Under the pieces are notes generated by a model that saw nothing but the letters and a program-made list of their open reading frames with translations, had not been told where the DNA came from and ran no database searches. Position numbers and translations under genes: made by a program. DNA of 56,131 nucleotides, taken from a virus. Of the stretch, positions 167 to 19,275 are shown one piece after another (position 1 is the stretch's first letter; each line of letters opens with the position of its first letter). Location: the IMG/VR virus record IMGVR_UViG_3300002143_000137; one strand, given 5' to 3'.

Positions 167-2649
167 TGCTGGTCGGTGGCATCAATAGGCCAGGGATAGT
201 TGTTGTAAACAATTCCTGTGGAATATCGGTACCTACTCTCCAGTCTCCCGCCAACAATTCGCACCCAAGCCATATGCATCGTGCTCGTTAGCACACCGAA
301 GTCGAATGAAGTTGCGTTCGGCACGATATAAGCTTGATTTGATGCAATTACATCTGGTGGTAGATAAGCCATCGGAATGAAGTTGCGGCGCTCTGATGAT
401 GCAGTGGGGATCGCAACGTACTGGGTTGTTGGTTGCCGTATCTCAGCAAAAAGAGCCGGCGTGACGGCTAGTTTCTTTGTAGCGGCGCGATTACTCGACT
501 CTCTCCATAGCCGGACCGCCTCAACTCGTCTCTTGATTGCAGGTAGTTTGTTGATTTTTTGGGGGGGAACGCCAGAAAGCCAGAGGCAATATCGATTGAT
601 TGAATAGAGCAGCTCATTTCCTCCCACGAACGGCTTCAGAAATTCCTGTGCCTCAGGGCACTCGGCAAGAATCTCAGTACGAGTGCCCTCGTCTATAGTG
701 TAATTTCCATCGTCGAGTGCAAAACTTCCGTAATTCATAGCTGCGGCAGATGGCGATAACGGCTTTGTTCGTTTAGGAATGACGATGTTAGGTCCGTCAA
801 TTAGATACGGATTAATAGACTTAGCGGAAACTCGATGCGGTTCTCCTGCTACGTCATCATAATCAAAGATCACTGGCGCAGATGATGGAAACCGCGCGAA
901 TCCAATAATTATGCAATGGACTGCGGCGACACCTTTAGCCTCGTTACGCCACCTAAAGGTGCGGTGCGCAAAATGGATTTTTACGCCTTCTCCGATCATC
1001 CAGCCCCAAAGGGGAGCTACTTGCTCGCCTTGGCATATAGAGTTTGTGGAAACGAAAGCACAGCGAGTATGTTGCGTAGAGTATCTCACTGCCTTGATAT
1101 ACCACGCAGCCACGAAATCTAATACGGGTGCTCCTATAACCCCTTGTGTGGCTTCAAAGAAGGATGCTTTCTGCTCAGGCTTCTGCTCTTTTTTTCCAAG
1201 AAACGGTGGATTCCCAAACACGTAGGTGAGCTTCTCGGCCGGCACGACAGATCCCCAGTCCAATCTTAAAGCATCGCCATGCACAACATTAGCTGACTTT
1301 ACTAAGGGAATTCGGACGAGCGCCTGACCAAAAGCCTTACCTACCAGCAGATTCATTTGGTGATCAATCAACCACATAGCGACGCGAGTGATCTGGGCTG
1401 GCCACTCTTCGATTTCAATACCGTGAAACTGATCCACATCGACTTTTACATACTGGTCAACAGCATCCATTGAGAGCTGTTGCTGCCCCTTGCTGTAGAG
1501 GCGTTTAATCACTTCTAGCTCTAGTAAGCGTATCTCTCGGTAGCTGATAACGAGAAAGTTTCCGCAGCCGCAAGCAGGGTCAAAGAAGTTTAGCGACCCT
1601 AATTTTTGATGGAACTCCTGCAGCTTCTTCGGCTGCGTCTTAACTTTTTCAAATTCGTCACGCAGCTCATCCATGAATAATGGGCCAATGACTTTTAAGA
1701 TGTTTTTCTCACTGGTGTAATGCGCCCCAAGATTACGGCGCGCCTTTTCGTCCATAATGCCCTGGAAAAGCGAGCCAAAAATAGCTGGGCTAATCGCACC
1801 CCAGTCGAGTTCGCAACAATCTAGTAGTGTTTCGCGCATTGCGCGGTCAAAACTGGCCTGTGGCAAAAACTCTTCAAATAGCTTGCCGTTTACATATGGG
1901 AATGCGGCAATCTGCTCATCAAGGTTTTTAAGACGCTTTTCGGGTGCCGTGTTGAGTGTTTGAAAAATCTGATTGAGACGTGGAGCAAGATCTGAGCCAT
2001 CTTCGGCTGTACGAACCCGAATAAAGTCTTCAAAGGCGCTACGAGGCATAAAAATGCCGGTATCATCAGCAAACATACAAAATAAAATGCGGACAAGATA
2101 GACCTCAAGCTCATGCCCTTCATAGCCTATATCCTTAAGTGCATCGTGAAGCTGCGCCAATTTCTCTGCAGCCTTTGTATTTACCGGGTCTTGCTCCTTG
2201 TATTGCCGAGTTTCATAACCGGCAATAAAGCTAAAATGGGATAGCCTTTGGGGTAACTCACTCAATGGGAATTCGTAATTTTCGTCAGTATCAAGGTTGC
2301 GAATTCTGAATCGAGCAAAATCTGAAACTATGATGTATCGAGGTAGCTCTTTATCACTCAAGCCTGGGAAGTAGTCCGTCGCTTGGTCGTAGGCCGAGTC
2401 CAAATTCTTTCCTCTGGACTTGTGCTCAGCCAGCAACATTCCCGGCCAAAAAAGGTCGATAAAACCATCTTTACCGTTAGCTTTTTTAATGTGCTTTTCA
2501 AATGCAGCGAGTCGACGCCTACTTACTCCAAAAACATTAAAAAACTCATCCCAGAAAGTTTTGGCTTCTGCGTGCTCGGAGGATTCATTTTCCCACTCGC
2601 GCACAAAGGCAACAGAGCGATCTCTGATTTCATTCCATGAAAGTGGCAT
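1..2649 (-). CDS. MmeI-family Type IIL restriction-modification enzyme, codons 1-883 (ORF leaves the left edge and is completed by 55846-55965)
   Basis: My own reverse translation from the ATG at 2649 stays open to base 1: MPLSWNEIRDRSVAFVREWENE... Motifs: D-x9-ExK nuclease (GFIDLFWPGMLLAEHKSRG), SAM motif I (FFDPACGCGNFL), motif IV (FGNPPFLG). Absent from the ORF track because it has no in-window stop. Confidence 0.85.
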   Translation of the reverse strand, partial: MPLSWNEIRDRSVAFVREWENESSEHAEAKTFWDEFFNVFGVSRRRLAAFEKHIKKANGKDGFIDLFWPGMLLAEHKSRGKNLDSAYDQATDYFPGLSDKELPRYIIVSDFARFRIRNLDTDENYEFPLSELPQRLSHFSFIAGYETRQYKEQDPVNTKAAEKLAQLHDALKDIGYEGHELEVYLVRILFCMFADDTGIFMPRSAFEDFIRVRTAEDGSDLAPRLNQIFQTLNTAPEKRLKNLDEQIAAFPYVNGKLFEEFLPQASFDRAMRETLLDCCELDWGAISPAIFGSLFQGIMDEKARRNLGAHYTSEKNILKVIGPLFMDELRDEFEKVKTQPKKLQEFHQKLGSLNFFDPACGCGNFLVISYREIRLLELEVIKRLYSKGQQQLSMDAVDQYVKVDVDQFHGIEIEEWPAQITRVAMWLIDHQMNLLVGKAFGQALVRIPLVKSANVVHGDALRLDWGSVVPAEKLTYVFGNPPFLGKKEQKPEQKASFFEATQGVIGAPVLDFVAAWYIKAVRYSTQHTRCAFVSTNSICQGEQVAPLWGWMIGEGVKIHFAHRTFRWRNEAKGVAAVHCIIIGFARFPSSAPVIFDYDDVAGEPHRVSAKSINPYLIDGPNIVIPKRTKPLSPSAAAMNYGSFALDDGNYTIDEGTRTEILAECPEAQEFLKPFVGGNELLYSINRYCLWLSGVPPQKINKLPAIKRRVEAVRLWRESSNRAATKKLAVTPALFAEIRQPTTQYVAIPTASSERRNFIPMAYLPPDVIASNQAYIVPNATSFDFGVLTSTMHMAWVRIVGGRLESRYRYSTGIVYNNYPWPIDATDQHRAAIEKAAQAVIDTRSVHHESTLADLYDPLFMPLDLVRAHRALDRAVDDAYVPSG

Positions 2650-2778
2650 TTAGCTTTTACTCTAATTATTAATAAAATTACCGTTAGCGTAATCTGTCTA
2701 CTGCGCATTTGAATGTACTCACTCCCACAACAATGAGCGGAAAATCCCATTCTGCGCGCACTTCAAAAATCAGTGATT

Positions 2779-2821
2779 TTAACCCACCACTTACCCACAC
2801 TTTATCCACAGAAGACCCACA
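2779..2821 (+). promoter_or_regulatory. Four 11-bp-phased DnaA-box-like repeats, including a perfect TTATCCACA
   Basis: CCCAC at 2783, CCCAC at 2794, TCCAC at 2805, CCCAC at 2816. TTATCCACA at 2802-2810 and TTACCCACA at 2791-2799. Confidence 0.45.
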
Positions 2822-3234
2822 ACATCTTGTGCTTGCGAAATCATGCAAATCTTATCAAGCTACAGAAGTGCTCTTAAATAAAGAGCCAATTAGAGGAAAA
2901 TGCTTAGCGGATAAATTTAAACAGATGGCCCCTTACTCGAAGGGGCACAGGTTCTTGGGGCTCGCCGCAAAACTAGGCCCAAGGTGTCACAACCGAATCT
3001 TAGCTAATCAAAATACAGTTGGCTAGTATAGATTCAAATTAAAAGGAATTGCCCTGTGATTACATTAATCATAGTACAGGTGATCGTAGACTGCATGGCG
3101 CAATTAATTGCTGCTTTACTACCATGCGTGTGTGAAAGCCTTGCTTGGACTTGCTTAATCTTTATCTAACCGCAAGGATGAAGCCTTAGTGCTAAATTTG
3201 CGCAAAGGCTTCAGCTTACTTTTGAGTGATCATT

Positions 3235-3450
3235 ATGAGCTTACTGCTTGTAATCTTGGCTACTATCGCATCCATCGCCGCCCTCGGTGTCCATGGCCTT
3301 TGGGTCTTTTTAATTGGCTTAGGCTTATTGTCAGCCATAGAAAAAAAACACCCAGGGACGAACTTTGTCGAGGGTGCCGTTTCGATCATTGGCATTTTGA
3401 TTGTCGTAATGATGGCGGCGGAGATCCTTCTCCGCACCCTTCAAGGTTAA
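3235..3450 (+). CDS. Small hydrophobic membrane protein (71 aa, 2-3 predicted TM segments)
   Basis: MSLLLVILATIASIAALGVHGLWVFLIGLGLLSAIEKK...IIGILIVVMMAAEILL. No competing gene on the other strand. Stop overlaps the stop of the giant gene (TTAA). A hairpin at 3180-3212 lies upstream. Confidence 0.5.
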   Translation: MSLLLVILATIASIAALGVHGLWVFLIGLGLLSAIEKKHPGTNFVEGAVSIIGILIVVMMAAEILLRTLQG

Positions 3451-6400
3451 GCGCTAACCCTGTCGACCGCCCGCTTCTGGATCTCATTCATTATTTGCTG
3501 AATTTTGTTTAGCCGCTCGCGCTTCTGCTCTGAAGTTAGCTGTGAATCACGGTAAACGGCATCTTGTTGCTTTCGCAGCATAGACAGTCGCATGTTCGCC
3601 CCGACCAGCATTTTCCGCGCTTTCAGCTCAGTGCCATAGTCTTCGATAATTTCCGCCCGCCGCTCAGCGTCCGTGTTTGGGTCGCGAATGGTGCTGTATG
3701 CCTGGTTCGCTCGGCTCACTAAACGGTAGAAATCGTCAGAATACTTCGTGCCTACCGGGTCATCGCCACGAGCAAACCAACCAATTACAGGGTAATCACG
3801 CCGATTCATGGCCGGCGTTGTATTGCCCGACAGCATGTGGACCACAGCATCAGTGGCCGACAACAGCGATATACCCATTGAGCCGGTATAGCCTTTGATG
3901 ATGTGATCTATCCGCTTGGGGGATGCCATATCACCGGTTACCCCCAGGTCTTCGAGCATCGCGCCCATCCCCGTGGCTAGCGCAGAGGTATAGAGCGACT
4001 TCCGACTTCCAGGGAGATTGCCAAGATCAGATTGGTTGTCGATACTCCGGCCCCGGAAAAAATCATAGTTGAATGCCGCCTCTGTAATCGGCATTACCGC
4101 TTGCGGCATTGGGTTCATGCTTAGCGTTTCCAGCATATTCGAGCCAACCGACTTGAAAAACACGCGAGCGTCATCATCGCCATTAGCTAGCCGCGCAGCC
4201 CGCTCAGGGATGGTTGAGAACATAAGCCCCAGCTCGAACGGTTTTGGTATGCGTAAATGCTCGCCGTCTAGGAATATGTGCCAGTTGGCATCCTTGTCCC
4301 AGTCGCGTAATGCCTGGTAATCCTCGTCATCCTCATTAATCGCATAGAGCGCCAAGGTCGCTGCAGCTACCAACGCCCCTTTAAACGCCACCATTTGCGT
4401 TAATTCAGCCATATTTTTCTGATTGCCAACCACTCGGCCCAGCTTGTACAAGCCTTGGATACGCGCATTCATAAATGGCACTGTCTGGATAAGGAAGTGC
4501 ATAATCCCGGCGCGGCCATGTAGCGAGAAGTCCATGAGGTCTTTTGCTCGGTAAGCTGCATCAAAGTAACTATGGCCGGAGTCGAGGGCATCGCGGAACA
4601 TTTTTTGCCGCGCCATGTTTTCAAAGCGCTCGCCCTTCTCCCGGTACCACTCCCAGCTTTGCTTACTGCCATCAAACAGCGATGACATATAGCCATCCAC
4701 CGACTCTGTGCTCATGCCCTTCTTCCGCAATTGCTCGCGCAGTGCTTGAGCATTGCTTGTGGCATCATTGCTGTAGCGGTAGCCACCCATAAACGCAGAG
4801 CCCGCCATCATCATATCAATGGTGTCGTCGTCGATCTTGAGTGCATCGCGGAATTGTCCAAGCGCCTTGCTGGCTTGCCATTTCACGTCCTCGCTCTGCA
4901 TCCAGCTCGCGGTAATGTCTCGTATGGCGTTACGCAGCATAAATGTTGGCGTTGCGGTAACCCCGGCCGTGAGTAGCTGCTTTGGTATGCCCAAGAGGCG
5001 GGTGATCGCCGTAGACTGCATATCGTTCATGGCAGTCAGCGCGCCCAGCACACCAATATCATGCACCCGGTAATACTCGTTTTGGCCATCGCGGCGAACC
5101 CGAATCACGTTATTGCCCGAGCGGTTCCCCTCATGCGCAACCGATAGCACTGAGTTTTCCGAGCCGGTATCGACCTCATTAACAATGCGGAGCAGCGCGT
5201 TATTCTTAACGCTGGCGTCAATGGCGCGCGTGACATTCATCAGCATGTTTTTCAGCGGATCTTGTAGATTTGACGTGCCGCCCTTCAGCTTCTCAATGCC
5301 GTCTTTCTGGTGCGACAGTCCGCGCTTAGTGAATGACGCGACCACATCGACTTCGCCCGTCTCGTCGGTCACTTCGCGGTAAAACGGTATGTAGTAGGCA
5401 TCCTGCTTGAAGTGGTCGGCGCTTGCCTGAGTAATCAGATTACCGCCCGCCATTAGGTCCAACATGGCGCCGTTGTAAGCCTTCCATTCATCCGCCACCG
5501 ATTGATAGAGCGCCGCTGTTTCCGGGCTCACATCCAGCAGTGTCGCGATTTCTTGCTCGGTCAGTAGGTTTTCCCGGTCGCTGGCCATTAAGCCCTCGGC
5601 CCGCTTTGCGACCATCCAGCTAACCCAGCCGTTAACGTCACCTTCTATCGGCTTGAGTACATCCAGCAAACCCTTGCTGCCGCGCTTCGCTTTAAGAATG
5701 CCATCCTCGTGCCACTCCGGTGTCGCATGGCCCAGTGCTGCGGCTAATGCTGCCCCGGTGTTGGTGCTCATGCGCGCCCGCATGTAGGCCTCGGCGTTGA
5801 TCTTTTTCAGGTCGTAGAATTTATCGGCCACCGAGGGTATAAAGCCGTCCATGACTTCGCGCCACCAATCCTTCATGGAGTCTTTCGCCCTGGCGATTGG
5901 TGAGCGATTGTCTTGAGCCATGCCCAGCTTTGCGGCCATTATGGCTTCGCGGTCTGAGACTGGCTCGGCGATGCGAGAGTAGAGAATATTTGAGCTGCCG
6001 TCCTCTGCCGAATCAAACGCTGCATTGACCGAGCGTATGTTGGCGGGGTTAATTACTATAACTTGATCGACATCTCCAGTTTCCTCGTCTACTAAAACGG
6101 CAGAGTCATAGCCTTGCGCCTCAATCTCAAGCATATCCAGTCCACGATTAACAAACGACTCCCATTCTGGCGAGCCGTAAGACGCCGTGACCGTATATGA
6201 ATTTTCTAGTTTTGCGAACACGGGGTATATTGCGCCCGCAGCCCCAGAATCACCAAAAAGCTCGTTAGTGAAGCCCTCAGCGTATGTGGGGTCGGGTGTT
6301 AGGTATATGCCATCAGGGCTATGCTGCCGCGAGAACTCTTTAATATCTACGCCCGGACGGGTGCCGTGATATAAAACCGTATCGGTATCAAAGCCCATCG

Positions 6401-9400
6401 CCTTAGCCCGCCGCATTCTCGCATCCTTGGACATATCCAAGCCCTTAGCGTTAGCGGCATCCCACGCTAGTGAGCCTTTGCCGTTATCTTGGCCTAATTC
6501 ACGGCTGAACAAGTGCTGCTCACCTCGATCCCGGTTGTACTTATTGACAATATCATCTTTTGTAAGTATATTTTTTGGCAAGTCTTGACGCCGTTTAGGG
6601 GATTGTTCCCGTCCAGGCGCGGCTTTTGAAGCCCTGATTTCGATCAGGGCTTCTTCATTTCTGACATACAGCAAGCCCCCTCTTGAAATATCGCCCCACA
6701 AACGCTCCACTCCGCTAGAATTTTCGCCGTGGTGTTTCGGGGTAATCGTTTTTATCTCCCCTTCATTAATGCCAACCAGTATAGGCTCGCCCTCAGCAGT
6801 ACGAACCTCGATAACAACATTAACCTCCCCTTCCCCCTTTCCGGCACCTCGGGTATAAACGGCCTGCGGGTCAGCAAGCAATAGGGGCAAGTCTTCCAAA
6901 ACACTATAAGGCAAATCGCTGTGCTTATTCTGAATTGCCATGATACGTCGCTTGGTGATTTCTATCTTGCTGATTACTTTTAGCTCTCGAAGTATTAGCG
7001 GGGCTTTAACCGACAACACAAAATCCTGTTTATCAGCATTACGCATCAAGGATAATTTCTTACTCCACTGCGCCATCACTTTGTCGGCTTCGCTCGCTGC
7101 CTCACGATTGAAAACAGCATCGTCGAGATCGACACGACGGCGAGCCCGCTGCCCCTCTGCAAACGCATCTCCAATGCGGTACACCAAGTCTTTACCTTGA
7201 CGATGCGCCGACACATCGACATTAAAGCCAGCCCGTTTAAGTAAGCGCTGCAATGCCAAAACAATGCGATTCCACACTTTATCGGTAAAGGTAAGCTTCT
7301 CTTGGGCAATGCGCGCTAGGATTTCTTCGGCTTTTAGTTGGTCAGATCGGCCAGATTCTACGCGCTCAACTTCGTCCAAGACCGACGCAAGCTCGGGTGA
7401 ATCTTTGGCCGCATTACGTAGACTTGTAAGAAACTCGGCAGCGTGAACAGGATCAATAAAACCAATGCCTTTATGCACCAAGACCTCATGCTGCAAGGTT
7501 TCTTCGAGGTCGGCGAGGGAATCAAGTGCTTCGGTATAGACAAATAAGGTATCGGTTTTGGGGTCGTACCCTCCTTTGGTTCTGAATGGTGCTGGCGTTC
7601 CGTGCGCTTCTTCATGGGTGCGAAATACCTTTACGGTTACATCGTTGGCACCCTTATATTGCTTGAGGAATTTATTTATCGCAATCTTGGCCGCGCCCAG
7701 GCCTACACCTTTCGGCGTTGCGGCCCTCTTTAGCTCGGATGTGCGGCTGTAAAATATCCCCTCTTCTTTGTTCAGGCTGCCGCCTACCGCTGCATTCGAT
7801 TTACCACCGATAAACACATCCAGCACTCTCATGCCGATATTGTTTAGCGCCCTGGATGCGTTGATTGCCGCGTCAACTTCGTCGGCATCGATATTCAGGA
7901 TGGCGGTTTTGGCGCTGGCGTTATTCAGGGTTTCAAGAAGGCGCCGGTAACCGTCACCACGCAAGTCGGATAACTCTTCTGTCGTCATCGGCACAAACGC
8001 TGCTGGTGCATTTTGGGTATTCAGAAACAGGACGCCGCTCGGTAAATCCTTAACCGCCACGCGCGCAGTATCAGCTGATGTAATAGATGTTTGCTTGCTG
8101 CGGGCAAGGATTTTCGATTCAGTTACCGGCACCGTGCGCTTGCGCAGTAGCGGCTTAACCTTAATCGGGTTCCCGGTAGTGAGATCGTCAAAGAAGTAAG
8201 CGCCCGCGCCTTCACCCAGAATTACATGGCCCATCGTATCGATGCCGGATGGCTCCAGGGTACCGACGATTTTATCGGTAATCATGCGGTCAGCGTCGGA
8301 GGGCTTAGTCATTCCACTAGGGTGATTGTGGCCCAGGTAGATTTTGGCCGCGCCTGGAGTGGCCGCAACTGCGCCAGCTAACTCCTCAGGGTTAACGCTC
8401 GCGCTATCCATTGCGCCCTTGGTGTGACGAATAACCGATAGTGGCCGGTCGTCTTTATCCAAGACCAGGACAAGCATGTTTTCCTGGGCGTTTTTACGGA
8501 ATGATGAAAGGACGTGTGCCGCGTCCTGGGGAGATTTAACAAACTCGACGCCGGTTTTTACCGTGTCTACTTCTCGGAGTGCGGCTTTGGAATAAAACTC
8601 TGTGGCGGCAACTGATTTTTTGGCGAGCTGATTGAATAAGTCGCCCTGGGCTGGCTGCTGGTCAGCGGCCGGCTCGGTAATACGATTTGCACCACGTTGC
8701 CCGCGGCGTATGTCTTGGGTTTCTCGCTCATTGCTTGAGTATAGCGCTGATCCCGTATTTTCGGAAATAATCCCTTCGTCATTAACTTCAATGGTGTCAA
8801 TCAAGCCATCAAATGCCTTATTGATCGCCGCGCGCTCATCCCCTTGCGGGAACCATTTTGTAGCTGCCTCTCCATAAATGCCGTCTTCAGCGCCCAGATT
8901 CTTCCATGCCGCCGTAAGGTAGTCATTCCGCTTTTCATCCAGCCTTAACTTATCAAGCACATAGGTTTCAAATGCCCGCGCAAACATTTCGAGCCGCGTC
9001 GACCAATAGGGGTCTTTCTTCTTTCCGTCCATATCCCTTGCGTTGCGCCGGTACTCTGTCATGCCGCTTTGCTGGGGTTTGTGAGTTTCGGCAAACTTCT
9101 CAGCATCGACCGCGTACTCAATCATGCCCGCCGCGGTATCGGCATGAGTAAATTGATCCGCCGCAATCGCTCGCCCATATACCTCACTAGCAATCTCTCT
9201 GGCGGCGTTGATATTCTTGCCGACGAGCTGCTTAGTTTTGCCGAGGGCTACATAGTCGCCGCGATCACCCGCGCGCAGCTTATCAACAATGGCATTTAGC
9301 TTGTTTTGCTGGGCCTCGGTTGCGTTAGTCATCCATCGCTGCCAAGAGGCGACAATCCTATCAAGCGATTCCCGGCTGCTCGCCAGCGACGAAAGCCTGG

Positions 9401-12400
9401 CGGCCTCCATATCCTCGGCAGTCCTAATGACCTCAATCTTTTCCATGGCGCCAAGGATGGCTTTATAGGCCGCAACAATCTCTGGCCTGGCGTTGCTGCC
9501 CTTTAAGAGCCAATCCCTGTCTGCATGCTCACTAAGGAATGGCCCCTCCTGCCGAGCTAGGCCCGCAATTACACCGAAATGATGATCGACCGCATGGCCA
9601 AACTCATGGGCCAAGCTTCCTGCGCCCGCCGTTTTTGTAATATTGATTTCATTTAAACCGGGGACAAAGTGCGCCGCCGCGTGGCTGCCATGACCTTGAG
9701 CGCCAAAGGCAACGCCGAGCATTCCACCAAGCGACATTGACTCCGGTGGTACGCCCATCACCTCCGCCAAATCCAGGAAGGCATCATAAGCGGCGTTAGT
9801 GTGCTGCTGCCGGTCTGCTGCATTCATCCAGTTGCCAAAATTCACCCCCCGGAAACCAAACGTAGTCCGAAGCTGGTCGGCCGTTACATCGCTTTCTCTT
9901 CGCGCCTCACCAATTCGCTCGACGTGATCCATTGAAACGCTTGGCTCCTTGAAAGATGCCTCTCGTTCAACCTTCGCCAAGTCTCTCGCCGCCTGAATCG
10001 CCGCCTCCTGCGTGTCGTGCTCGCTTAATACGCTACGGAAGCGCTTTTTACTCACCCCCCATTTATCACCCTTTTGGGTGACCGTATATTGTTTCTCCCA
10101 CGCTTCACGCTTAGCGGGCCATCCCTCGGATATTTCCTTAACCGCTTTACGCAAATCAGCAGAGCCAATATCGGCGCGCTTTATAAACCTGTTGCCGCCA
10201 ATGGCGAGGATATTGCGATTACCCTCCGGGTTTTTCTTACCCCAGCGAGCGCCGTTATCGTTTTCAGGAAAGGCCGCCTCGTATATTTTGTGAGTTATCG
10301 CTTTTAATGAGTCTGCTACCGACTTGCTGGCTCGCTGCTGTGCCAGATAGTCAGACCCGGCAGACTGTATTACTTGCAAAGACTCGAGAATTTTTTGCGC
10401 ATATTCCCGCGACCCAGCGTAATCCATGACCACGTCGCGCACTTTGCTGGTTGTTTCAACGAATGCCCGGACACCCTCCTCGCTTTTGCTGTCGGGCTTC
10501 ACTGCCATAGAGTCATAAATGTGCTTCAAGGTGTACGCGGCCAGTGGGTTCATGCCATCATTAATCAGCGCCTCATAATCCGGCTTTGGCCAAATTTTCG
10601 CCTTTACGGCCATCTTCACTTGTTCGGCGTCATTCATTCCCTCGAAGTCACGCATTGTTAGGCCGGTTGATCTGCGACGATTAGCTCCCAGCTCCTCGCC
10701 ACTATCGGCTAATTTCTTTTGAGGCTCAGTCTTGGTTTCTTGATTGCCGGCGCTGGATTTTTCAGTTGATCGACTGGAGCCCTTGCTGCTCTTGGCTTTC
10801 AGCTCTTGATCGGCTTTTGATCCTTTCGCGCCCCGGTCAACATCAGCGCTCGGAAACTCCTTAACCTGCTCCAGCAGCTCAGTGATGGGCGCATCTAAAC
10901 GAATTACCCGCACTTCCTCGTTGTTGTCGCGCTTGGCCATCCATTGGTGGTGACCATCAAGCACATGGCCGTCGCCGGAAACGAGGATAGCGCGGTCGCC
11001 GCCAGTGAAGTCCTTGGCTTTGGCCACCTTAGCTTCGGAAAACTCTTTTTGTGTTGGCTTGAGCGAGCTGGCTGCCACCGTCTCTTCGGTACCGGCAATG
11101 CCGCGCGCCTTGAGGAAGTTTGCCAGGGCGCCGCGGTGCTCAGCCTTAACTTGCGGCATCTCGTCGCGAGGAATATTCAGGGTACCGGAGTCGGTAGAGA
11201 ATGCCGTCCACTCCTTGTCGATCTTGGCGCCGCGAATGTCTCGACCGCGCGCCAACTTCTGTATGTTGCGCAAGGCAACAATATTTGAGTTGTGATCGCC
11301 TCGGTACTGCTTGGCTAGCGCATTATATTCGTCGATTTCATCGGCGGATCGTATAAGCGCGTTCTCAAGCGCTTTTTTGGCGGAAAGCGGCTTAAATGTG
11401 TCGCTCGTTAAGCTTTTTGCCGCAGGCCCGTCAAACAAAGAGTTTTGGCCCCGAGAGTTGGCAATATCAGCCGGCGCGCTGGAGCCAGACAAAGTGAAGT
11501 CGTTAAGCTCTTTGTCGGCGTCGAGTTTTGCGGATATTGCGGCTTCTGCGGATTTTGCGGAGGCTTCGGCGTCAGCTTTCGCTTTCGCCTGGTCGACTAG
11601 CTCTTGCTCGGTGTACTGGTTGAGGCTGAAGTTGTCTTGGTTCCCAGTTTGCCCAAGGCCTTCAGCGCTCCCTTCGCCTCGGTTGGCAGGCTCTCCGTTG
11701 GCGTTCCGTTCATTAGCTCCGTCATTAGCGACTGCCCCGCCTTTGTTCCCAGCACCTTGCGCGTTAAATTGCTGCTCATTGTTAAATGCCTCTTCAGTTA
11801 AGGTAGCGGGCGATCTTTTTTCAACCGCGCCAAACATATCTTCTGCTGGTTTTACGGACTCATTGTATAGCGCGTCAGCTAGTGCTGTCAGCTTGTCGCC
11901 AATCGCTTTCGCTGACCGAATATTTTCAGAGAACATTTGCAGTATAGGCCATGTTTCCGGGGCCACTGTCATATCGGATTGCTGAATAAATTCTTGAAGG
12001 CTTCGGCCTTGCCGGCGCGCATTCACCGCTATGGCTGCCGCCTCAGACACAATCGCCCTTACGTCATAGTTACCCTGGCCCTTGAGGCGAGAAAGCGGCC
12101 CCGCTGCTGCCAATAAGCCAGACATAACCGTGCGCGCTTCGGGGTCGGTTGCTTGTGCCTGCAATCGAATCAGCTCGTCGTTATCAAAAGACGCAGCAAA
12201 TATTGCGTTTTCCATGCGCTCATAGGCGCGCTTGGACGGCAATTTTCCGTCACGCAGGCCGCCTCGCTCCGACTCCGGCATAGCGTTTATAAACTGTTCT
12301 GCCGCTTCTTGCGTTAGCTGCCCATCAGGGCCAATGATCGCGGTACCGGCCACATTGATCCGCCGCGCATCGTTACGCGCCTGCTCTACAGGGGATAGTT

Positions 12401-14927
12401 CAGAGACGCCGCTAATGTTTGACTCGTCACCAATATCATTCGTAATTTCAGAGCTGGGCATTACCCGCACCAGCACCGGGTTTTTCATGCGACGGATTAC
12501 ACCCGGGTCGATTCCGTGCGTATTGTCCCCGGCCATCTCTTGCTTGTATTGGCCGCCTTGGCCACTGCTGTGTGCGTGCTGCAGCCCGGTTACTCGGCCA
12601 TTACCAGCAATCGCGCGAGACTTGCCTTCCATGCCGGCATCGTAGCCTTTAACCGGCGAGCCGTTTATGTCATTGCTCGACAACAACTGGTCGGCCTCAA
12701 CAACGGCATATTGAACTGGTATTTTTCTGCCGCTACTGGAAGTGGCCACGTCTTTACGGCCTAAATTTTGGCGAGGAATATCCGCGCCCGCCTCAACCAC
12801 TGGCGCGCCGGCCGATAAGTCACGCGAAAAACTCAATCGAGAATAATCTGGATTACTCGCGATACTGCGCATTTGCGCGATACTTTCCGGCGTGGAGCGG
12901 TCGCGGTTTTGTAGTACCGGCTTGTCGGCTTGCGCGCTTACCTGGCTAGCTTCGCTATTGGTGGTTGCGCTCAAGTCGATTGATTCTGGCGCGGTCGGCA
13001 CTCTCTCGGTCCGAGTGCGGCCGCGTCCTGGCACGCCAGAATTTTGCGCGCCAATCTGCCCTTCATAAGCAGCAGTATTTTCGCGCTGCTTGCGCGCCCT
13101 TTCCTGCTCGGCGTCGTAGGTTTCCTGGGCATCGCCGCGCATATCATCATACCGGCGTTGGCGCACATCGTCGGGCTCGGTACCGAAAACGTCGCTCGTC
13201 TTGCCTAGCTTTAGTGTGCCGTCAAGATCCTGGCTAATGCCTGGCTGTTTGCCGGGCTTTGGCTCTGCCGGAATGTGCTCGCCATCCAGGATGTGTTGGC
13301 CGATTTGCAAAGGATCTTTAATGGCTTGACCATCATAAGTCTCACCTTGCGCGCTCGGGCTCCCGGCGACGGGCATCGTCGCACCGGGGATAAACTCGCC
13401 TTTCGTGGCGCTGACGGCTGGCAGGCCGCCATTACCGCCACCGTCATTACTGCCAGTGTTGTCATAGAAGCGAGCCAGAATGTCGTCGGCGTTTTGATAA
13501 AGCCGGCTTGCCATGCCCTCCTTACCTTCAGCCTGGAGTTTTTGCGCGCGGCGATAGAGGTTTCGTGCACCAGTTAAGACGGTTGCGCCTTCTGTGTCGC
13601 CAGCGCGCTCAAGAATAAGGATGTCGCCATCGAGGCCGGATAATCGGCTTTTACGGCTGTTGTTTGATTCCTTAACCGTTGCGCCTGGTGTCATTCCAGC
13701 CGTGCGCTGGTCGCTGCTCGCGGGCTTGCCGGAAAAGGCGCGCTCCACTTCGGCGGCATTCAGCCCGTCAAGCTCGGCTTGGCGCTGTCGCAGCATCTCC
13801 ATTTCTGCCGGGTCGGTAAAAATACGCGACCGGCGATTCTGCATGTCTACTGCTGCGGCGTCCGATCCCGCCAGCTCTTGCTCAAGCGCATCGCCACCGG
13901 CATCCGCTGCTTTTTTCCGGGCCTCGTCGACGCGACCGATAGCGCCCAATGGAGCGCCCACGCCAAAGCCGACTACAGCGCCGGTTAGCGCTTGCGGCAG
14001 TACGTTATCGTTGGTAATTGTCGGGTCAATATTGCGCGCGGCATTGTTAACAGAAAGTGCTGCCGAGCCTTCTTCGACAAACTCCTGAGCCATCTCCGTT
14101 GAGCCGACTAGCGCAGCGTTACCCAGGCGGGACTTGCCAAGAGTCCCTTTCAATAAGCCGTCAAATACCTTGCCCATTACGGCGTTCGATAAGAAATTGA
14201 CTGCGGCCAGTTCAGGATCGCGCATAACTTCGGACGCGGCAGTGTCAGCTAAATGCTTGCGAGCATTGGTGGCGTTTGTAATTTCGTCCTGGCTCTCGTC
14301 GTAAAAATCCGAGTTCCACAGATCCAGGAAAGCCTTGCTTTGATACAGGGTTTCGTCGGGGATATTCATCACGGTAGAGCGCGCATCTTCGCCCGCCATA
14401 CCTTGCGCCATGCCGCCACCGACAGCGCCAGATCCCATTGCTCCGGCTGCAGAAGCTAAGCCTCGCCCGGCGCCAAGCATTTTGGCACCCACGCCGACTG
14501 CACCACCACCAATAAGCGTTGGGATCGTGGTGCCCAAGCCCTGCGCGGTCATCATGGCTAAAGTTCTGGCATTCGCGCCTTCGCCAAGCTCCAGTCCGTT
14601 TTCGCCGTTTCGGAAAACTTCTTTCGTTAGCGCTTCCCGGCCTTCTGGGCTAATGGTTTCACGCTGGTCATCAGCCCAATTATTAAAGACCTCTGCGACG
14701 CCCTGGCCGTAGCCGGTAAATTCCTGAGCTAGCGAAAACAGGCCGCCGACACCCTGAAGCGCGCCGCGCTGAGTCATATCCACTAAATCGCCGGTAATGC
14801 CCTGACGGTCTTTGCTCAATGCTTCGGGAGATACTGCGCTGGACTGCGCAATATGCGTGTTCAGAAAATTGATTTTTTCTTCGTCGGAAAGGTCGTCAAA
14901 GCCGGGGATAAACGGATTATTGCTCAT
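3447..14927 (-). CDS. Giant multidomain polyvalent virion protein (3,826 aa)
   Basis: One uninterrupted ORF, the last gene of the late operon. Multiple enzyme motifs are listed as sub-features below. Confidence 0.95.
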   Translation of the reverse strand: MSNNPFIPGFDDLSDEEKINFLNTHIAQSSAVSPEALSKDRQGITGDLVDMTQRGALQGVGGLFSLAQEFTGYGQGVAEVFNNWADDQRETISPEGREALTKEVFRNGENGLELGEGANARTLAMMTAQGLGTTIPTLIGGGAVGVGAKMLGAGRGLASAAGAMGSGAVGGGMAQGMAGEDARSTVMNIPDETLYQSKAFLDLWNSDFYDESQDEITNATNARKHLADTAASEVMRDPELAAVNFLSNAVMGKVFDGLLKGTLGKSRLGNAALVGSTEMAQEFVEEGSAALSVNNAARNIDPTITNDNVLPQALTGAVVGFGVGAPLGAIGRVDEARKKAADAGGDALEQELAGSDAAAVDMQNRRSRIFTDPAEMEMLRQRQAELDGLNAAEVERAFSGKPASSDQRTAGMTPGATVKESNNSRKSRLSGLDGDILILERAGDTEGATVLTGARNLYRRAQKLQAEGKEGMASRLYQNADDILARFYDNTGSNDGGGNGGLPAVSATKGEFIPGATMPVAGSPSAQGETYDGQAIKDPLQIGQHILDGEHIPAEPKPGKQPGISQDLDGTLKLGKTSDVFGTEPDDVRQRRYDDMRGDAQETYDAEQERARKQRENTAAYEGQIGAQNSGVPGRGRTRTERVPTAPESIDLSATTNSEASQVSAQADKPVLQNRDRSTPESIAQMRSIASNPDYSRLSFSRDLSAGAPVVEAGADIPRQNLGRKDVATSSSGRKIPVQYAVVEADQLLSSNDINGSPVKGYDAGMEGKSRAIAGNGRVTGLQHAHSSGQGGQYKQEMAGDNTHGIDPGVIRRMKNPVLVRVMPSSEITNDIGDESNISGVSELSPVEQARNDARRINVAGTAIIGPDGQLTQEAAEQFINAMPESERGGLRDGKLPSKRAYERMENAIFAASFDNDELIRLQAQATDPEARTVMSGLLAAAGPLSRLKGQGNYDVRAIVSEAAAIAVNARRQGRSLQEFIQQSDMTVAPETWPILQMFSENIRSAKAIGDKLTALADALYNESVKPAEDMFGAVEKRSPATLTEEAFNNEQQFNAQGAGNKGGAVANDGANERNANGEPANRGEGSAEGLGQTGNQDNFSLNQYTEQELVDQAKAKADAEASAKSAEAAISAKLDADKELNDFTLSGSSAPADIANSRGQNSLFDGPAAKSLTSDTFKPLSAKKALENALIRSADEIDEYNALAKQYRGDHNSNIVALRNIQKLARGRDIRGAKIDKEWTAFSTDSGTLNIPRDEMPQVKAEHRGALANFLKARGIAGTEETVAASSLKPTQKEFSEAKVAKAKDFTGGDRAILVSGDGHVLDGHHQWMAKRDNNEEVRVIRLDAPITELLEQVKEFPSADVDRGAKGSKADQELKAKSSKGSSRSTEKSSAGNQETKTEPQKKLADSGEELGANRRRSTGLTMRDFEGMNDAEQVKMAVKAKIWPKPDYEALINDGMNPLAAYTLKHIYDSMAVKPDSKSEEGVRAFVETTSKVRDVVMDYAGSREYAQKILESLQVIQSAGSDYLAQQRASKSVADSLKAITHKIYEAAFPENDNGARWGKKNPEGNRNILAIGGNRFIKRADIGSADLRKAVKEISEGWPAKREAWEKQYTVTQKGDKWGVSKKRFRSVLSEHDTQEAAIQAARDLAKVEREASFKEPSVSMDHVERIGEARRESDVTADQLRTTFGFRGVNFGNWMNAADRQQHTNAAYDAFLDLAEVMGVPPESMSLGGMLGVAFGAQGHGSHAAAHFVPGLNEINITKTAGAGSLAHEFGHAVDHHFGVIAGLARQEGPFLSEHADRDWLLKGSNARPEIVAAYKAILGAMEKIEVIRTAEDMEAARLSSLASSRESLDRIVASWQRWMTNATEAQQNKLNAIVDKLRAGDRGDYVALGKTKQLVGKNINAAREIASEVYGRAIAADQFTHADTAAGMIEYAVDAEKFAETHKPQQSGMTEYRRNARDMDGKKKDPYWSTRLEMFARAFETYVLDKLRLDEKRNDYLTAAWKNLGAEDGIYGEAATKWFPQGDERAAINKAFDGLIDTIEVNDEGIISENTGSALYSSNERETQDIRRGQRGANRITEPAADQQPAQGDLFNQLAKKSVAATEFYSKAALREVDTVKTGVEFVKSPQDAAHVLSSFRKNAQENMLVLVLDKDDRPLSVIRHTKGAMDSASVNPEELAGAVAATPGAAKIYLGHNHPSGMTKPSDADRMITDKIVGTLEPSGIDTMGHVILGEGAGAYFFDDLTTGNPIKVKPLLRKRTVPVTESKILARSKQTSITSADTARVAVKDLPSGVLFLNTQNAPAAFVPMTTEELSDLRGDGYRRLLETLNNASAKTAILNIDADEVDAAINASRALNNIGMRVLDVFIGGKSNAAVGGSLNKEEGIFYSRTSELKRAATPKGVGLGAAKIAINKFLKQYKGANDVTVKVFRTHEEAHGTPAPFRTKGGYDPKTDTLFVYTEALDSLADLEETLQHEVLVHKGIGFIDPVHAAEFLTSLRNAAKDSPELASVLDEVERVESGRSDQLKAEEILARIAQEKLTFTDKVWNRIVLALQRLLKRAGFNVDVSAHRQGKDLVYRIGDAFAEGQRARRRVDLDDAVFNREAASEADKVMAQWSKKLSLMRNADKQDFVLSVKAPLILRELKVISKIEITKRRIMAIQNKHSDLPYSVLEDLPLLLADPQAVYTRGAGKGEGEVNVVIEVRTAEGEPILVGINEGEIKTITPKHHGENSSGVERLWGDISRGGLLYVRNEEALIEIRASKAAPGREQSPKRRQDLPKNILTKDDIVNKYNRDRGEQHLFSRELGQDNGKGSLAWDAANAKGLDMSKDARMRRAKAMGFDTDTVLYHGTRPGVDIKEFSRQHSPDGIYLTPDPTYAEGFTNELFGDSGAAGAIYPVFAKLENSYTVTASYGSPEWESFVNRGLDMLEIEAQGYDSAVLVDEETGDVDQVIVINPANIRSVNAAFDSAEDGSSNILYSRIAEPVSDREAIMAAKLGMAQDNRSPIARAKDSMKDWWREVMDGFIPSVADKFYDLKKINAEAYMRARMSTNTGAALAAALGHATPEWHEDGILKAKRGSKGLLDVLKPIEGDVNGWVSWMVAKRAEGLMASDRENLLTEQEIATLLDVSPETAALYQSVADEWKAYNGAMLDLMAGGNLITQASADHFKQDAYYIPFYREVTDETGEVDVVASFTKRGLSHQKDGIEKLKGGTSNLQDPLKNMLMNVTRAIDASVKNNALLRIVNEVDTGSENSVLSVAHEGNRSGNNVIRVRRDGQNEYYRVHDIGVLGALTAMNDMQSTAITRLLGIPKQLLTAGVTATPTFMLRNAIRDITASWMQSEDVKWQASKALGQFRDALKIDDDTIDMMMAGSAFMGGYRYSNDATSNAQALREQLRKKGMSTESVDGYMSSLFDGSKQSWEWYREKGERFENMARQKMFRDALDSGHSYFDAAYRAKDLMDFSLHGRAGIMHFLIQTVPFMNARIQGLYKLGRVVGNQKNMAELTQMVAFKGALVAAATLALYAINEDDEDYQALRDWDKDANWHIFLDGEHLRIPKPFELGLMFSTIPERAARLANGDDDARVFFKSVGSNMLETLSMNPMPQAVMPITEAAFNYDFFRGRSIDNQSDLGNLPGSRKSLYTSALATGMGAMLEDLGVTGDMASPKRIDHIIKGYTGSMGISLLSATDAVVHMLSGNTTPAMNRRDYPVIGWFARGDDPVGTKYSDDFYRLVSRANQAYSTIRDPNTDAERRAEIIEDYGTELKARKMLVGANMRLSMLRKQQDAVYRDSQLTSEQKRERLNKIQQIMNEIQKRAVDRVSA
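6020..6400 (-). other. ADP-ribosyltransferase-like module of the giant protein (about aa 2845-2970)
   Basis: VLYHGTRPGVDIKEF...DGIYLTPDPTYAEGF...VLVDEETGDVDQVIVINPANI. This is the H-Y-E type ART pattern seen in polyvalent proteins. Confidence 0.55.
7300..7640 (-). other. Second HExxH module of the giant protein (about aa 2430-2540)
   Basis: LEETLQHEVLVHKGIGF at nt 7471-7491. Confidence 0.35.
8190..8600 (-). other. RadC-like JAB/MPN module of the giant protein (about aa 2110-2245)
   Basis: KIYLGHNHPSGMTKPSDADRMITDKI. The HNHPSG motif is at nt 8313-8335. Confidence 0.75.
8940..9880 (-). other. Zincin-like metallopeptidase module (LPD1-type) of the giant protein (about aa 1685-1995)
   Basis: FGFRGVNFGNWMN...GAGSLAHEFGHAVDHH...EMFARAFETYV. 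Confidence 0.6.
10865..11180 (-). other. ParB/sulfiredoxin-like nuclease module of the giant protein (about aa 1250-1355)
   Basis: LKPTQKEF...AILVSGDGHVLDGHHQWMAK. Confidence 0.7.
12400..12910 (-). other. Possible additional ParB-superfamily module of the giant protein (about aa 675-840)
   Basis: IPVQYAVVEADQLLSSND...GKSRAIAGNGRVTGLQHA...NPVLVRVM. Confidence 0.4.
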
Positions 14928-14963
14928 AGGAGAATGGCGCCTGCTGGTTAGACAATCGCCATA

Positions 14964-14994
14964 ATCCTAGGTAAGTCGAGGTTTGCGCGGAATC
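14964..14994 (-). promoter_or_regulatory. Late promoter-like motif copy 1 (upstream of the giant gene)
   Basis: Minus strand reads AGATTCCGCGC, 17 nt, TAGGAT. Confidence 0.45.
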
Positions 14995-15735
14995 TTACCG
15001 CTGCATTAGACTTCCATTTTTTGCTTGTAGCTGCTCGTAGTCGGCGCGCTTTTGTTGCACCTTAGTCCTTAGCGATTCATTCCAGCCGCCCAGCGTGTCG
15101 CCTACCATGGAGAACAACCCCTGTTTCTCTGCGACCTGCTGCGAGCCCGGCTGAGTTCCGCGTGCAGGCGGCAAAGCACCACTGCTCGGCACTGCATCGC
15201 CACCAGTGCTAGAAGGTGGTGGTGGCGCAGCAGAAAGCCGGATTGCCTCTGACACCGCCGCACCTACAGGCTTACCCATATCAATTAGGGTTTTCGCTCG
15301 CTGGCCTACCGGCGTACTAAAGTCGATGAATTGATTGCCATCACTAACGCCGCTAACAGACTTGGTTCCGTACTCGTCCGAACTTTCGACCGGCTTCCAT
15401 TTATTTTCTTTATCGGCGCGACCATCCCCTTTTAAGCCCTTGTCCAAGTAGTAGTCGGTCAATTCCTTTTTGCCGCGCACCTCTTCATCGACTCGGAATT
15501 TTGCCATTTCTCGCTCGGCCGCTACGCGCTTGTCAGCTTCTCCGGAGGCGTATTCGTTCTGCATCCCCATCAGCTCTTTGTCGCGCGCAAATTTACCATC
15601 AGCCGCCTCGGCCGAAATTTTTGCTAAGCGTTCATCGCGCATTTGCTGAAAGTGGTCTGCCAGGGCCATTTGCCCAGCTTGCGCAATCCCCTGGCCTAGT
15701 CCGGCCAATAACCCATACTCAGCCCTGCCCGGCAT
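14995..15735 (-). CDS. Hypothetical virion/ejection-module protein (246 aa)
   Basis: ORF in the late operon. GGAGGT lies 5 nt before the ATG at 15735. No recognisable motif. Confidence 0.6.
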   Translation of the reverse strand: MPGRAEYGLLAGLGQGIAQAGQMALADHFQQMRDERLAKISAEAADGKFARDKELMGMQNEYASGEADKRVAAEREMAKFRVDEEVRGKKELTDYYLDKGLKGDGRADKENKWKPVESSDEYGTKSVSGVSDGNQFIDFSTPVGQRAKTLIDMGKPVGAAVSEAIRLSAAPPPPSSTGGDAVPSSGALPPARGTQPGSQQVAEKQGLFSMVGDTLGGWNESLRTKVQQKRADYEQLQAKNGSLMQR

Positions 15736-16228
15736 ACTTACCTCCAATACGGCTTATTTCAGGTGCCAACTGCTGATCCTGCGCGCCAGCCCGCAAATCG
15801 GCCGCATCTATGTCGTAGCTCTGCCCCAAATTCTTCGCCGCCTCCATGAGTGCGGCCTCAATAGTGTCATCGCTAGTTTCCAGTATGTCGGCAGCATCAG
15901 CCATTTCAATGAGCGACATCGTGACCGCCTCAGCCAACGGCAATAGGAAGTCGTCGGGCAAATCCATTTTTTGATCCACGACCTCAACAACCTGGCTTAC
16001 TGCCAGGCCTATGCCTACCGCGGGATCTGGTGCGCTGCCAATCATATCCAGTAGCGCCGCATTCGCCTCGTCAGACTTGTAAATCATATTCCCGACTTCG
16101 GCTAGCGCCTGATCCATCAGCGATTCCTCTTCCGGCGTCGCCGCTTGATTGCCGGGGCTGGATGTCGCGCTACCAATAGACATTTTTGGTTCAGGCGCCT
16201 CGGCCTGCTGTAGTAATCCTTTTGGCAT
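15719..16228 (-). CDS. Acidic hypothetical protein (169 aa)
   Basis: ORF coupled to both neighbours by overlapping stop and start codons. Confidence 0.6.
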   Translation of the reverse strand: MPKGLLQQAEAPEPKMSIGSATSSPGNQAATPEEESLMDQALAEVGNMIYKSDEANAALLDMIGSAPDPAVGIGLAVSQVVEVVDQKMDLPDDFLLPLAEAVTMSLIEMADAADILETSDDTIEAALMEAAKNLGQSYDIDAADLRAGAQDQQLAPEISRIGGKYAGQG

Positions 16229-19218: not shown

Positions 19219-19241
19219 ACATCACCTCAATCAATCTCCCA

Positions 19242-19275
19242 GTATTAGGCCAATTTCCAGTGTTGCGCGGAATCT
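19242..19275 (-). promoter_or_regulatory. Late promoter-like motif copy 2
   Basis: Minus strand reads AGATTCCGCGC, then 18-20 nt, then CCTAATAC. Confidence 0.4.

Follow-up and report, generated by a model that had tools for sequence, protein, structure and literature searches.

The 56,131-nucleotide virus record IMGVR_UViG_3300002143_000137 of IMG/VR (hereafter the window, meaning this whole stretch of DNA) encodes on its minus strand (3447..14927) a protein of 3,826 amino acids (aa), here called the giant protein. It is a phage-type polyvalent protein sensu Iyer et al. 2017, a class in which one polypeptide carries 2-15 unrelated effector-type domains. We consider it probable that the protein is packaged in the phage head and exits via the tail at infection, and that it consists of an N-terminal leader of the type found in the virion RNA polymerase (vRNAP) of phage N4, an exchangeable train of enzyme modules and a C-terminal block. 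The architecture as such is already known; the interest lies in the link to N4, a rule of cysteine avoidance and an unnamed domain, referred to below by its DGHHQ motif.

The reading frame begins with an ATG at 14927 and is translated without an internal stop; an in-frame TAG (14969-14967) lies 14 codons upstream with no alternative start codon between, therefore the frame cannot extend further. The gene occupies 11,481 of the 56,131 bases (20.5%), in agreement with a preliminary description made from the letters alone, which had seen a single uninterrupted open reading frame (ORF) of about 20% of the genome closing the late operon (terminase-portal-capsid-tail, on the minus strand) directly after low-complexity proteins; the latter are four ORFs rich in Gly, Ala, Thr and Gln. 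All eight motif strings listed there are present, at aa 768, 1314, 1690, 1772, 2199, 2478, 2851 and 2874. The polyvalent architecture read from them is borne out by Pfam, where the ddrB-ParB, LPD1, RadC, ART-PolyVal and LPD38 models pass their cut-offs, and by the CLCA_X model of NCBIfam, and it is on account of these multiple profile-confirmed effector modules that the protein belongs to the phage-type class. LPD38 and DdrB-ParB were both listed as phage-only by Iyer et al. 2017. The three long stretches in which the preliminary description could name no motif (the N-terminal one, aa 1400-1650 and the C-terminal ~830 aa) had been left as possible seats of unassigned activities; all three prove to be conserved modules.

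An N-terminal domain of the N4 virion RNA polymerase type

The N-terminal domain, for which Pfam has no model, matches over aa 41-314 the N-termini of the giants of phage Y3 (vB_Pun_Y3, a Pseudoalteromonas phage) and Vibrio phage douglas 12A4, with E-values of 1e-23 to 1e-26. A profile of this family scores 70.3 bits against residues 151-446 of N4 vRNAP; 1,000 shuffles of the N4 segment stayed at or below 1.6 bits, and its reversed form scored -27. When the profile was built without the giant protein and its close relatives, the giant protein scored 54.2 bits and N4 72.3 bits. Reciprocal profile matches thus lie at 54-72 bits, shuffle controls overall at 9.7 bits or less, and a reciprocal jackhmmer search starting from N4 recovers the giant protein (E 6e-20). 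As judged from these profiles, the homology is remote but reciprocal.

A conserved ExxxE motif and, after it, a glycine-zipper hydrophobic segment (aa 309-331) close the domain, E278, E282, G320 and G324 being conserved in the family. The phi24B giant and seven prophage giants carry it N-terminally as well. In N4 vRNAP this domain has been tied to genome injection (PMC13492108). A polymerase is not part of the likeness: BLASTP against the T7-like single-subunit RNA polymerase domain (N4 aa 1008-2104) returned only chance pieces (E 1.2-8.3), and neither Pfam nor NCBIfam detected a polymerase family in the giant protein. N4 vRNAP itself has a metallopeptidase-type HExxH motif at the start of its C-terminal region; the profile of the HExxxH domain of the giant protein (see below) scored only 3 bits at this N4 HELVH motif.

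A C-terminal block fixed in position

LPD38 is recognized within the C-terminal block by Pfam (E 9.2e-37) and by phrog_18222 (E 5e-97), but the conserved unit, aa 2951-3825 by hidden Markov model, is much larger than the Pfam LPD38 model. Across 14 sequences it has 27 invariant residues, and it includes a hydrophobic helix (aa 3509-3531). Its AlphaFold model is mostly helical and superposes on the C-termini of many phage polyvalent proteins with TM-scores of 0.7-0.78. The block is always C-terminal: in 78 proteins the median distance from its end to the stop is 8 aa, and it occupies the extreme C-terminus of 35 ORFs in prophages ranging from those of Pseudomonas to those of Chloroflexi and Clostridia. 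Stand-alone block proteins of 809-887 aa exist as well. An LPD38 block and an N4-type C-terminal domain occur together in no protein of the set. In the metagenomic phage JGI Ga0642625_09685 (1-12628) the block has a gene of its own (875 aa), and seven genes upstream of it lies that of a giant with more than 2,078 aa and with InPase, DdrB-ParB and RadC domains; this split locus therefore represents a fission or fusion of end block and cargo.

Among the relatives, both end modules are conserved and keep their position, while the central modules vary greatly. The giant protein has the traits of the LPD38-ending group formed by phi24B gp47, JC1 gp69 and PTXU04 gp25, namely a terminal helical block of ~800 aa and a near-zero cysteine content.

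Cysteine avoidance and presence in virions

The giant protein has no cysteine in 3,826 aa, and the four ORFs directly upstream have none in 1,316 aa. The 39 other ORFs counted in the window, including those four, average 0.59% cysteine, which gives P ~1e-10 for the giant protein. The giants of phiARM81mr, Y3, douglas 12A4 and PTXU04 are likewise devoid of cysteine and that of phi24B (2,807 aa) has two; 35 prophage giants have 11 in 91,709 aa (their neighbouring ORFs, 1.18%), and 146 giants found via the DGHHQ domain have 64 in 422,043 aa. None occurs in N4 vRNAP, N4 gp51 and gp52, eight N4-like C-terminal domains, or T7 gp15 and gp16. The stand-alone LPD5-LPD1 proteins, which share domains with the giant protein, have a normal 0.69%. 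Taken with the near-zero content of giants and ejected proteins, this normal content argues, at the level of composition, that cysteine avoidance tracks the ejected-protein class and not the domains themselves, and ejected proteins may in general be recognizable by a sequence signature. Cysteine is present in the neighbouring T7 portal, tail and terminase proteins and in N4 gp53, gp54 and portal; N4 major capsid protein, N4 gp57 and T7 gp9 are also cysteine-free. Neither the polyvalent-protein paper (Iyer 2017) nor the N4 cryo-EM paper mentions cysteine, and a limited literature search turned up no discussion of its avoidance in ejected proteins.

The label "virion protein" of the preliminary description is backed by homologues, through the work of others. 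Gp47 of phi24B was detected by virion proteomics while being invisible in cryo-EM maps, and its authors propose it as an ejection protein; gp69 of Burkholderia phage JC1 (4,515 aa) yielded 51 unique peptides from CsCl-purified virions. One could still suppose that the giant protein is a late cytoplasmic product, e.g. a toxin or an assembly factor, standing at the end of the operon by chance, since the virion evidence comes from other phages only. This is very improbable in view of the homologues found in purified virions of two phages, the cysteine-free signature common to known ejected proteins and the N-terminal domain of N4 vRNAP type.

The central enzyme modules

Of the two ParB-type motifs in the preliminary description, the one at aa 768 (GKSRAIAGNGRVTG) falls in a DdrB-like ParB domain with profile support (PF18763, E 7.3e-17, 62.1 bits vs a cut-off of 27.6), in whose family alignment R771 is invariant; the other, DGHHQW at aa 1314, was not recovered as ParB/Srx and is treated in the next section. 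Downstream of the ParB motif, phrog_5143 matches aa 772-1139 (E 1.5e-45), a region that aligns by BLASTP with residues 742-1005 of the Y3 giant (E 1e-23).

The zincin proposed at the HEFGH motif was recognized as CLCA_X by NCBIfam (NF041907, aa 1673-1787, E 3.7e-34; its 118 bits are under the whole-protein cut-off of 260 bits), while Pfam misses this region. CLCA_X is a zincin-like family of phages and plasmids defined by Lenart et al. 2013 (PMC3650047). Homologues of the CLCA_X/LPD5 part are mostly stand-alone proteins of 480-560 aa with Pfam LPD5 plus LPD1. In the LPD5 part H1753, H1774, E1775, H1778 and D1781 are invariant, that is, HExxH followed by a conserved Asp. Three results concern the front of the module: aa 1404-1893 are collinear by BLASTP with the region of the phi24B giant that leads into its LPD5 domain, phmmer with aa 1425-1660 finds matches in 12 of the 146 giants, and Pfam recognizes DUF2188 (E 8.6e-5 for the whole protein, 1.6e-5 for a sub-window). 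LPD1 always accompanies LPD5 in the homologues, and its Y1974, W1975, E1980, R1984 and E2031 are invariant. The stretch between the two parts (aa 1801-1950) is a gap in most homologues, P0018 and P0036 aligning over part of it, and in an AlphaFold model of aa 1641-2070 (mean predicted local distance difference test score, pLDDT, 77; core >90) it forms long helices (model positions 197-308). LPD1 is probably the C-terminal half of one zincin-like unit with LPD5, split here by this 150-aa helical insertion. A Foldseek search of the PDB with the model returned anthrax lethal factor in the top six places, albeit weakly (E 0.5-0.9, probability 0.3-0.6), and a PDB sequence profile of the region also ranks anthrax lethal factor first among real matches, weakly.

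The GHNHPSG string assigned to a JAB-type fold lies in a RadC/JAB domain (PF04002, aa 2131-2243, E 2.7e-20) with all its JAMM residues in place (E2149, H2200, H2202, S2210 and D2213); the RadC homologue 2QLC (E 9e-7) was the sole match of the whole protein to PDB sequences by phmmer. Iyer et al. 2017 described RadC as confined, among polyvalent proteins, to those of conjugative elements. This statement needs updating, since the domain is present in the giant protein, in three or more further LPD38-ending giants and in the split locus mentioned above.

The LQHEVLVHKG string marks a conserved HExxxH...E metallopeptidase-like domain, a second zincin candidate. In a family of 80 members H2480, E2481, H2485 and E2535 are conserved to 89%, 90%, 95% and 99%, respectively, and the domain is present in 23 of 42 proteins compared, LPD38-ending giants with few exceptions. 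It has no Pfam match, the MPTase-PolyVal model giving nothing at E<=1, and its motif agrees with that of the HEXXXH clade of metallopeptidases in Iyer 2017. Next comes a candidate MuF-C (PBECR) domain, whose collinear counterpart in the phi24B giant is a strong MuF_C match (E 1.2e-17), and then the ADP-ribosyltransferase (ART) foreseen at VLYHGTRPG, an ART-PolyVal domain (PF18760, E 2.7e-8, 35.1 bits vs a cut-off of 31.2) with conserved H2854 and D2941.

DdrB-ParB, RadC, ART, PBECR/MuF-C and metallopeptidases are the types of early counter-defence effectors proposed by Iyer et al. 2017, and the central modules vary between relatives as an arms race predicts. From this it could follow that the giant protein is only an accessory bundle of counter-defence cargo, with no role in delivery and dispensable on hosts free of defence systems. 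We regard this restricted function as unlikely. The only relative with functional data, the giant gene PTXU04_00025 of Escherichia phage PTXU04, is a "Fit" gene in a CRISPRi-ART screen, in which a single guide strongly lowers plating on a laboratory E. coli host; the end modules, and not the middle, are conserved and fixed in position; and N4 vRNAP has the N-terminal module too, in a role linked to genome injection. The conserved end modules together with the PTXU04 result lead us to argue that delivery is itself part of the function. The anti-defence role of the cargo is put forward as a proposal.

The two metallopeptidase-like domains may also be taken as tools for cutting the cell wall, the giant protein being a structural component that builds a channel across the periplasm. 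An ejectosome of this kind was proposed for gp47 in the phi24B preprint, and it agrees with the importance of the PTXU04 homologue for plating, with the hydrophobic segments at aa 309-331 and 3509-3531, with the lack of cysteine in the channel-building T7 gp15 and gp16, and with the lytic transglycosylase domains of some relatives. However, Pfam finds no lysozyme or transglycosylase domain in the giant protein, both zincin-like domains belong to families of self-processing or protein cleavage and not to known peptidoglycan hydrolases, the ParB, RadC, ART and MuF-C modules suggest cytoplasmic targets, and two hydrophobic stretches are few for 3,826 aa. A channel builder is therefore quite an unlikely description of the protein.

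An unnamed phage-only domain

The DGHHQ domain is very common and restricted to phages, with more than 4,000 representative proteins, yet is named by no library. Over its 135 aa some 40 residues are nearly invariant, including R1254, Q1259, R1265, Q1293, E1295, R1312, D1324, H1326, H1327 and Q1328. A library of 1.84 billion proteins searched with the profile yields 4,306 representative proteins at E<=1e-3; the best 150 matches are nearly all giants, of 2,000-6,379 aa. Of the phage records 211 contain the domain, of the plasmid records none.

The kinship of the domain with ParB/Srx is plausible but not established. A profile-level assignment was rejected: Pfam (16 members), NCBIfam and two PDB profile searches gave no match, and two hhalign runs against the ddrB-ParB profile gave a probability of 0.3-0.4%, i.e. 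background. The sole profile signal is a weak one for ParBc_2, on the motif of one distant stand-alone relative (E 0.046). The case that remains is at the level of the motif. Stand-alone relatives of 133-161 aa in large myoviruses have DG[HST]HR, the classical ParB/Srx form, and it is only in these distant copies that the arginine is found; where a DGxHR-type motif has its active-site arginine, Q1328 is invariant in 147 giant-protein copies. If the domain is a ParB/Srx derivative, the copies in giants have possibly swapped the catalytic arginine for an invariant glutamine. Several of the stand-alone DGHHR relatives (e.g. gene 65p144 of Aeromonas phage 65) adjoin genes of nucleotide metabolism or replication, among them those of a nucleotide pyrophosphohydrolase, a DprA-like protein, a deoxyribonucleotidase, a thymidine kinase and a DNA helicase, and this neighbourhood suggests a nucleotide- or DNA-directed activity.

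Two N4-like vRNAPs, P0198 (3,525 aa) and P0193 (3,725 aa), have a full N4-type C-terminal domain together with a DGHHQ domain in the N-terminal region, and thus directly link the vRNAP and polyvalent groups.

Relatives with DGHHQ and LPD38 in Bcep22-like and Ralstonia phages are annotated as DarB-like anti-restriction proteins, in other words as packaged methyltransferase-helicases that shield the incoming DNA from type I restriction. For the giant protein this annotation is hardly tenable and was rejected: Pfam, NCBIfam and PHROGs find neither a methyltransferase nor a helicase domain, and the similarity to those relatives is limited to the shared end and DGHHQ modules.

A proposed route of delivery

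We propose that the giant protein is organized in three tiers. The first would be a leader of ~300 aa ending in the conserved glycine-zipper hydrophobic helix; the second the DdrB-type ParB, DGHHQ, CLCA_X/LPD5-LPD1 zincin, RadC/JAB, HExxxH, MuF-C/PBECR and ART modules with low-complexity linkers between them; and the third the conserved helical block of ~830 aa with LPD38. The C-terminal block would recruit the protein into the procapsid or an ejection complex. At infection the protein would pass in a threaded, mostly unfolded state along the portal-tail channel and on across the periplasm, together with the products of the four cysteine-free upstream ORFs. The leader would engage the inner membrane, and the enzyme modules, perhaps released by the two metallopeptidase-like domains, would within the first minutes target the host's nucleic acids, nucleotides and proteins. 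The lack of cysteine would then be a constraint of the route, as it leaves no disulfide or metal-thiol traps in transit. The domain assignments, the homologies, the constant placement of the two end modules and the cysteine statistics are results of the present analysis. Presence in virions and a need for infection have been established by others, in relatives; packaging of the giant protein itself, unfolded transit, membrane tethering, self-cleavage and the enzyme targets we infer.

Several points weigh against this proposal. Virion presence and ejection of the giant protein are argued from homologues, and the effect of the PTXU04 knock-down could be polar or depend on host defences. Cysteine avoidance could have another cause, e.g. 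oxidation inside the head. The N-terminus of the giant protein is not significantly similar to N4 in a direct pairwise comparison, and a one-step profile finds only a 10.5-bit piece. The part of the C-terminal block in packaging is suggested by position and analogy; its model is of moderate quality (pLDDT 66.9), and Foldseek finds no solved relative in the PDB (best E 0.8, TM <0.12). Equating the block with the N4 C-terminal domain is unsupported: with a nine-sequence profile that includes eight fetched N4-like vRNAP C-termini, hhalign gave a background-like probability of 2.5% (P 0.018), and a hidden Markov model of the N4 domain did not match the giant protein. Among the enzyme modules, MuF-C stays below its cut-off (E 1.4e-4 to 1.6e-5, 22-25 bits vs 27.6). 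The activity of the ART is uncertain because the column with Tyr in 87% of the family aligns with F2886, although a shift is possible, Y2875 and Y2882 being nearby.

Gene order and the remainder of the window

The features of the giant protein and of the late operon are given in Table 1. The four ORFs directly upstream of the giant gene have no family match and none to N4 gp51-gp55; two of them are homologous to Y3 ORFs in the matching position (E 4e-17 and 2e-9). They are probably co-packaged ejection or internal proteins. Small cysteine-free ORFs also precede the giants of phi24B, PTXU04 and N4, and the layout with the giant as the last gene after such ORFs recurs in phi24B, PTXU04, Y3, douglas 12A4 and N4.

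Table 1 Features of the giant protein (residues and window positions) and late-operon genes of the window
Feature	Residues or length (aa)	Window position	Strand	Basis or remark
N-terminal domain homologous to N4 vRNAP residues ~151-446	30-335	13923..14840	-	Profiles
Low-complexity linker, probably disordered	336-659	12951..13922	-	No family match; 1 of 146 giants matches
DdrB-like ParB superfamily domain	660-822	12462..12950	-	Pfam PF18763
Post-ParB extension common to Pseudoalteromonas phage Y3 giant	823-1139	11511..12461	-	phrog_5143, BLASTP
Unnamed DGHHQ domain, phage-only, very conserved	1240-1378	10794..11210	-	Own profile
Front of LPD5-family module, including DUF2188 (1614-1655)	1425-1660	9948..10655	-	
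CLCA_X/LPD5 zincin-like domain (FGFRGVNFGNW ... HEFGHAVD)	1661-1800	9528..9947	-	
Helical insertion between LPD5 and LPD1 parts, largely specific to the giant protein	1801-1950	9078..9527	-	
LPD1	1951-2060	8748..9077	-	Pfam PF18796, E 5.9e-19 (match 1967-2047)
RadC-type JAB domain, complete JAMM motif	2121-2244	8196..8567	-	Pfam PF04002
HExxxH...E metallopeptidase-like domain (LQHEVLVHKG)	2395-2615	7083..7745	-	Family conservation
MuF-C (PBECR, predicted RNase fold), below threshold	2664-2722	6762..6938	-	Pfam PF18819
ART-PolyVal ADP-ribosyltransferase	2834-2975	6003..6428	-	Pfam PF18760 (match 2851-2968)
C-terminal helical block, ~830 aa, with LPD38 (3534-3715)	3000-3826	3450..5930	-	Pfam, PHROGs, model
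Upstream ORF	250	14995-15747	-	
Upstream ORF	169	15719-16228	-	
Upstream ORF	315	16228-17175	-	
Upstream ORF	582	17470-19218	-	
Endolysin		19529-20029	-	Late operon, after tail genes
Capsid protein		27958-28896	-	Late operon, tail genes come next
SU10-type portal		30307-32481	-	Late operon
Large terminase		32942-34501	-	Late operon
Small terminase		34485-35159	-	Late operon, first in order

The phage is temperate; the other arm of its genome has genes for an integrase, RecT, a YqaJ exonuclease and SSB. The portal nearest to its own in the phage collection, that of Vibrio phage 1.232.O, is only 39% identical, and megablast of the giant gene against 50,697 phage records found no DNA relative. 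Antisense ORFs within the giant gene have no Pfam match, and Rfam and tRNA scans of the window returned nothing. The ~3.4 kb downstream of the giant gene (1-3446) has a lower G+C content (0.47-0.49) and no convincing ORF, Rfam family or tRNA; this DNA may include the attachment site or regulatory DNA of the temperate phage. The small ORFs found downstream have no significant Pfam match, that at 911-1225 giving only a chance-level Sprouty hit (E 0.011, below the cut-off). A 74-aa ORF (3226-3450, plus strand), convergent with the giant gene and overlapping its stop codon, is very hydrophobic and resembles three membrane helices; it too has no Pfam match.

Elsewhere in the window, the ORF at 49617-50456 (plus strand) has a strong DUF2303 match (E 1e-45); a DUF2303 protein, gp10 of Burkholderia phage JC1, was unexpectedly present in virions. 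In the tail region the minus-strand ORFs 20473-21684 and 21699-23981 have a proprotein-convertase P-domain (E 3e-12) and a concanavalin-like Laminin_G_3 domain (E 2.5e-6), respectively, and are likely receptor-binding proteins.

Comparison with known systems

Giant polyvalent proteins take up about one fifth of many podovirus genomes, Shiga-toxin phages included. Of the giant injected proteins, N4 vRNAP alone has received in-depth study. The front domain shared with N4 vRNAP, the autonomous C-terminal block in its fixed position and the ban on cysteine, as in the ejected proteins of T7 and N4, are new handles on these proteins. We suggest, tentatively, that N4 vRNAP and the LPD38-type polyvalent giants are variants of one protein-delivery chassis of short-tailed phages. 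Its parts might be a shared N-terminal injection or membrane leader, a swappable middle and one of a few alternative C-terminal packaging blocks, and the middle could possibly hold an RNA polymerase, a string of counter-defence modules or enzymes acting on the cell wall. If such a chassis holds, it would explain how such different enzymes can be swapped into giants, and the ban on cysteine would become a hard physical rule for anything threaded through tail and periplasm. Were this true, sequence alone could suffice, through the rule, to predict which proteins are ejected, and engineered phages could inject chosen enzymes, a route to phage-delivered protein cargo.

P1 DdrB is the prototype of the DdrB-like ParB, head-packaged and joined to a metallopeptidase; unlike the giant protein, it comes from a myovirus, has two domains, is much smaller and lacks an LPD38 block. 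The giants of the Bcep22-like phages (Bcep22, BcepMigl; the "DarB-like" gp75 of Bcep22 has ~4,500 aa) share the DGHHQ domain, and JC1 gp69 has LPD38 near its C-terminus (4195-4401), as does the giant protein, but gp69 and Bcep22 gp75 have lytic transglycosylase, methyltransferase and helicase modules that are not found in the latter.

The giants of Y3 (3,421 aa) and douglas 12A4 (3,026 aa), each encoded after cysteine-free ORFs, resemble the giant protein in the N-terminal domain and in the absence of cysteine, and that of Y3 also has DdrB-ParB, LPD5/LPD1, ART and the HExxxH domain in common with it. Unlike the giant protein, neither has a detectable LPD38 block, and the Y3 giant differs further by a methyltransferase and by the order of its modules. 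In Y3 (13923-27297) the giant is followed by a separate gene for a cysteine-free "ADP-ribosyltransferase" of 1,027 aa, and LPD38 is undetectable in either; therefore other kinds of C-terminal module must exist.

PTXU04 gp25 (2,197 aa) is much shorter than the giant protein; in it Pfam finds LPD38 only, and an N4-type N-terminal domain was not detected. It shares the HExxxH domain, the lack of cysteine and the C-terminal block, which is 31% identical over ~820 aa (E 4e-98) and whose BFVD structure superposes with a TM-score of 0.78. The giant of the Stx phage phi24B (gp47, vb_24B_48, 2,807 aa) belongs, with the giants of the 933W group, to the closest known systems and is likewise the last gene of the structural module after small cysteine-free ORFs. 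It has the N4-type N-terminal domain (aa 108-438) and is collinear with the giant protein in four modules, the LPD5 region, LPD1, HExxxH plus MuF-C, and the LPD38 block (E 5e-35, 4e-9, 5e-10 and 2e-22). It differs by the lack of DdrB-ParB, the DGHHQ domain, RadC and ART, and the shared parts are only 21-37% identical.

In N4 vRNAP (gp50, 3,500 aa) the middle is an RNA polymerase, a domain that the giant protein lacks and in whose place it has another train of enzymes, and no similarity was detected between its C-terminal domain and the C-terminal block of the giant protein. The N4 protein is packaged and injected; like the giant protein it is cysteine-free, has its gene at the end of the late operon, behind those of cysteine-free proteins (gp51 and gp52), and begins with the homologous N-terminal domain (N4 aa 151-446).

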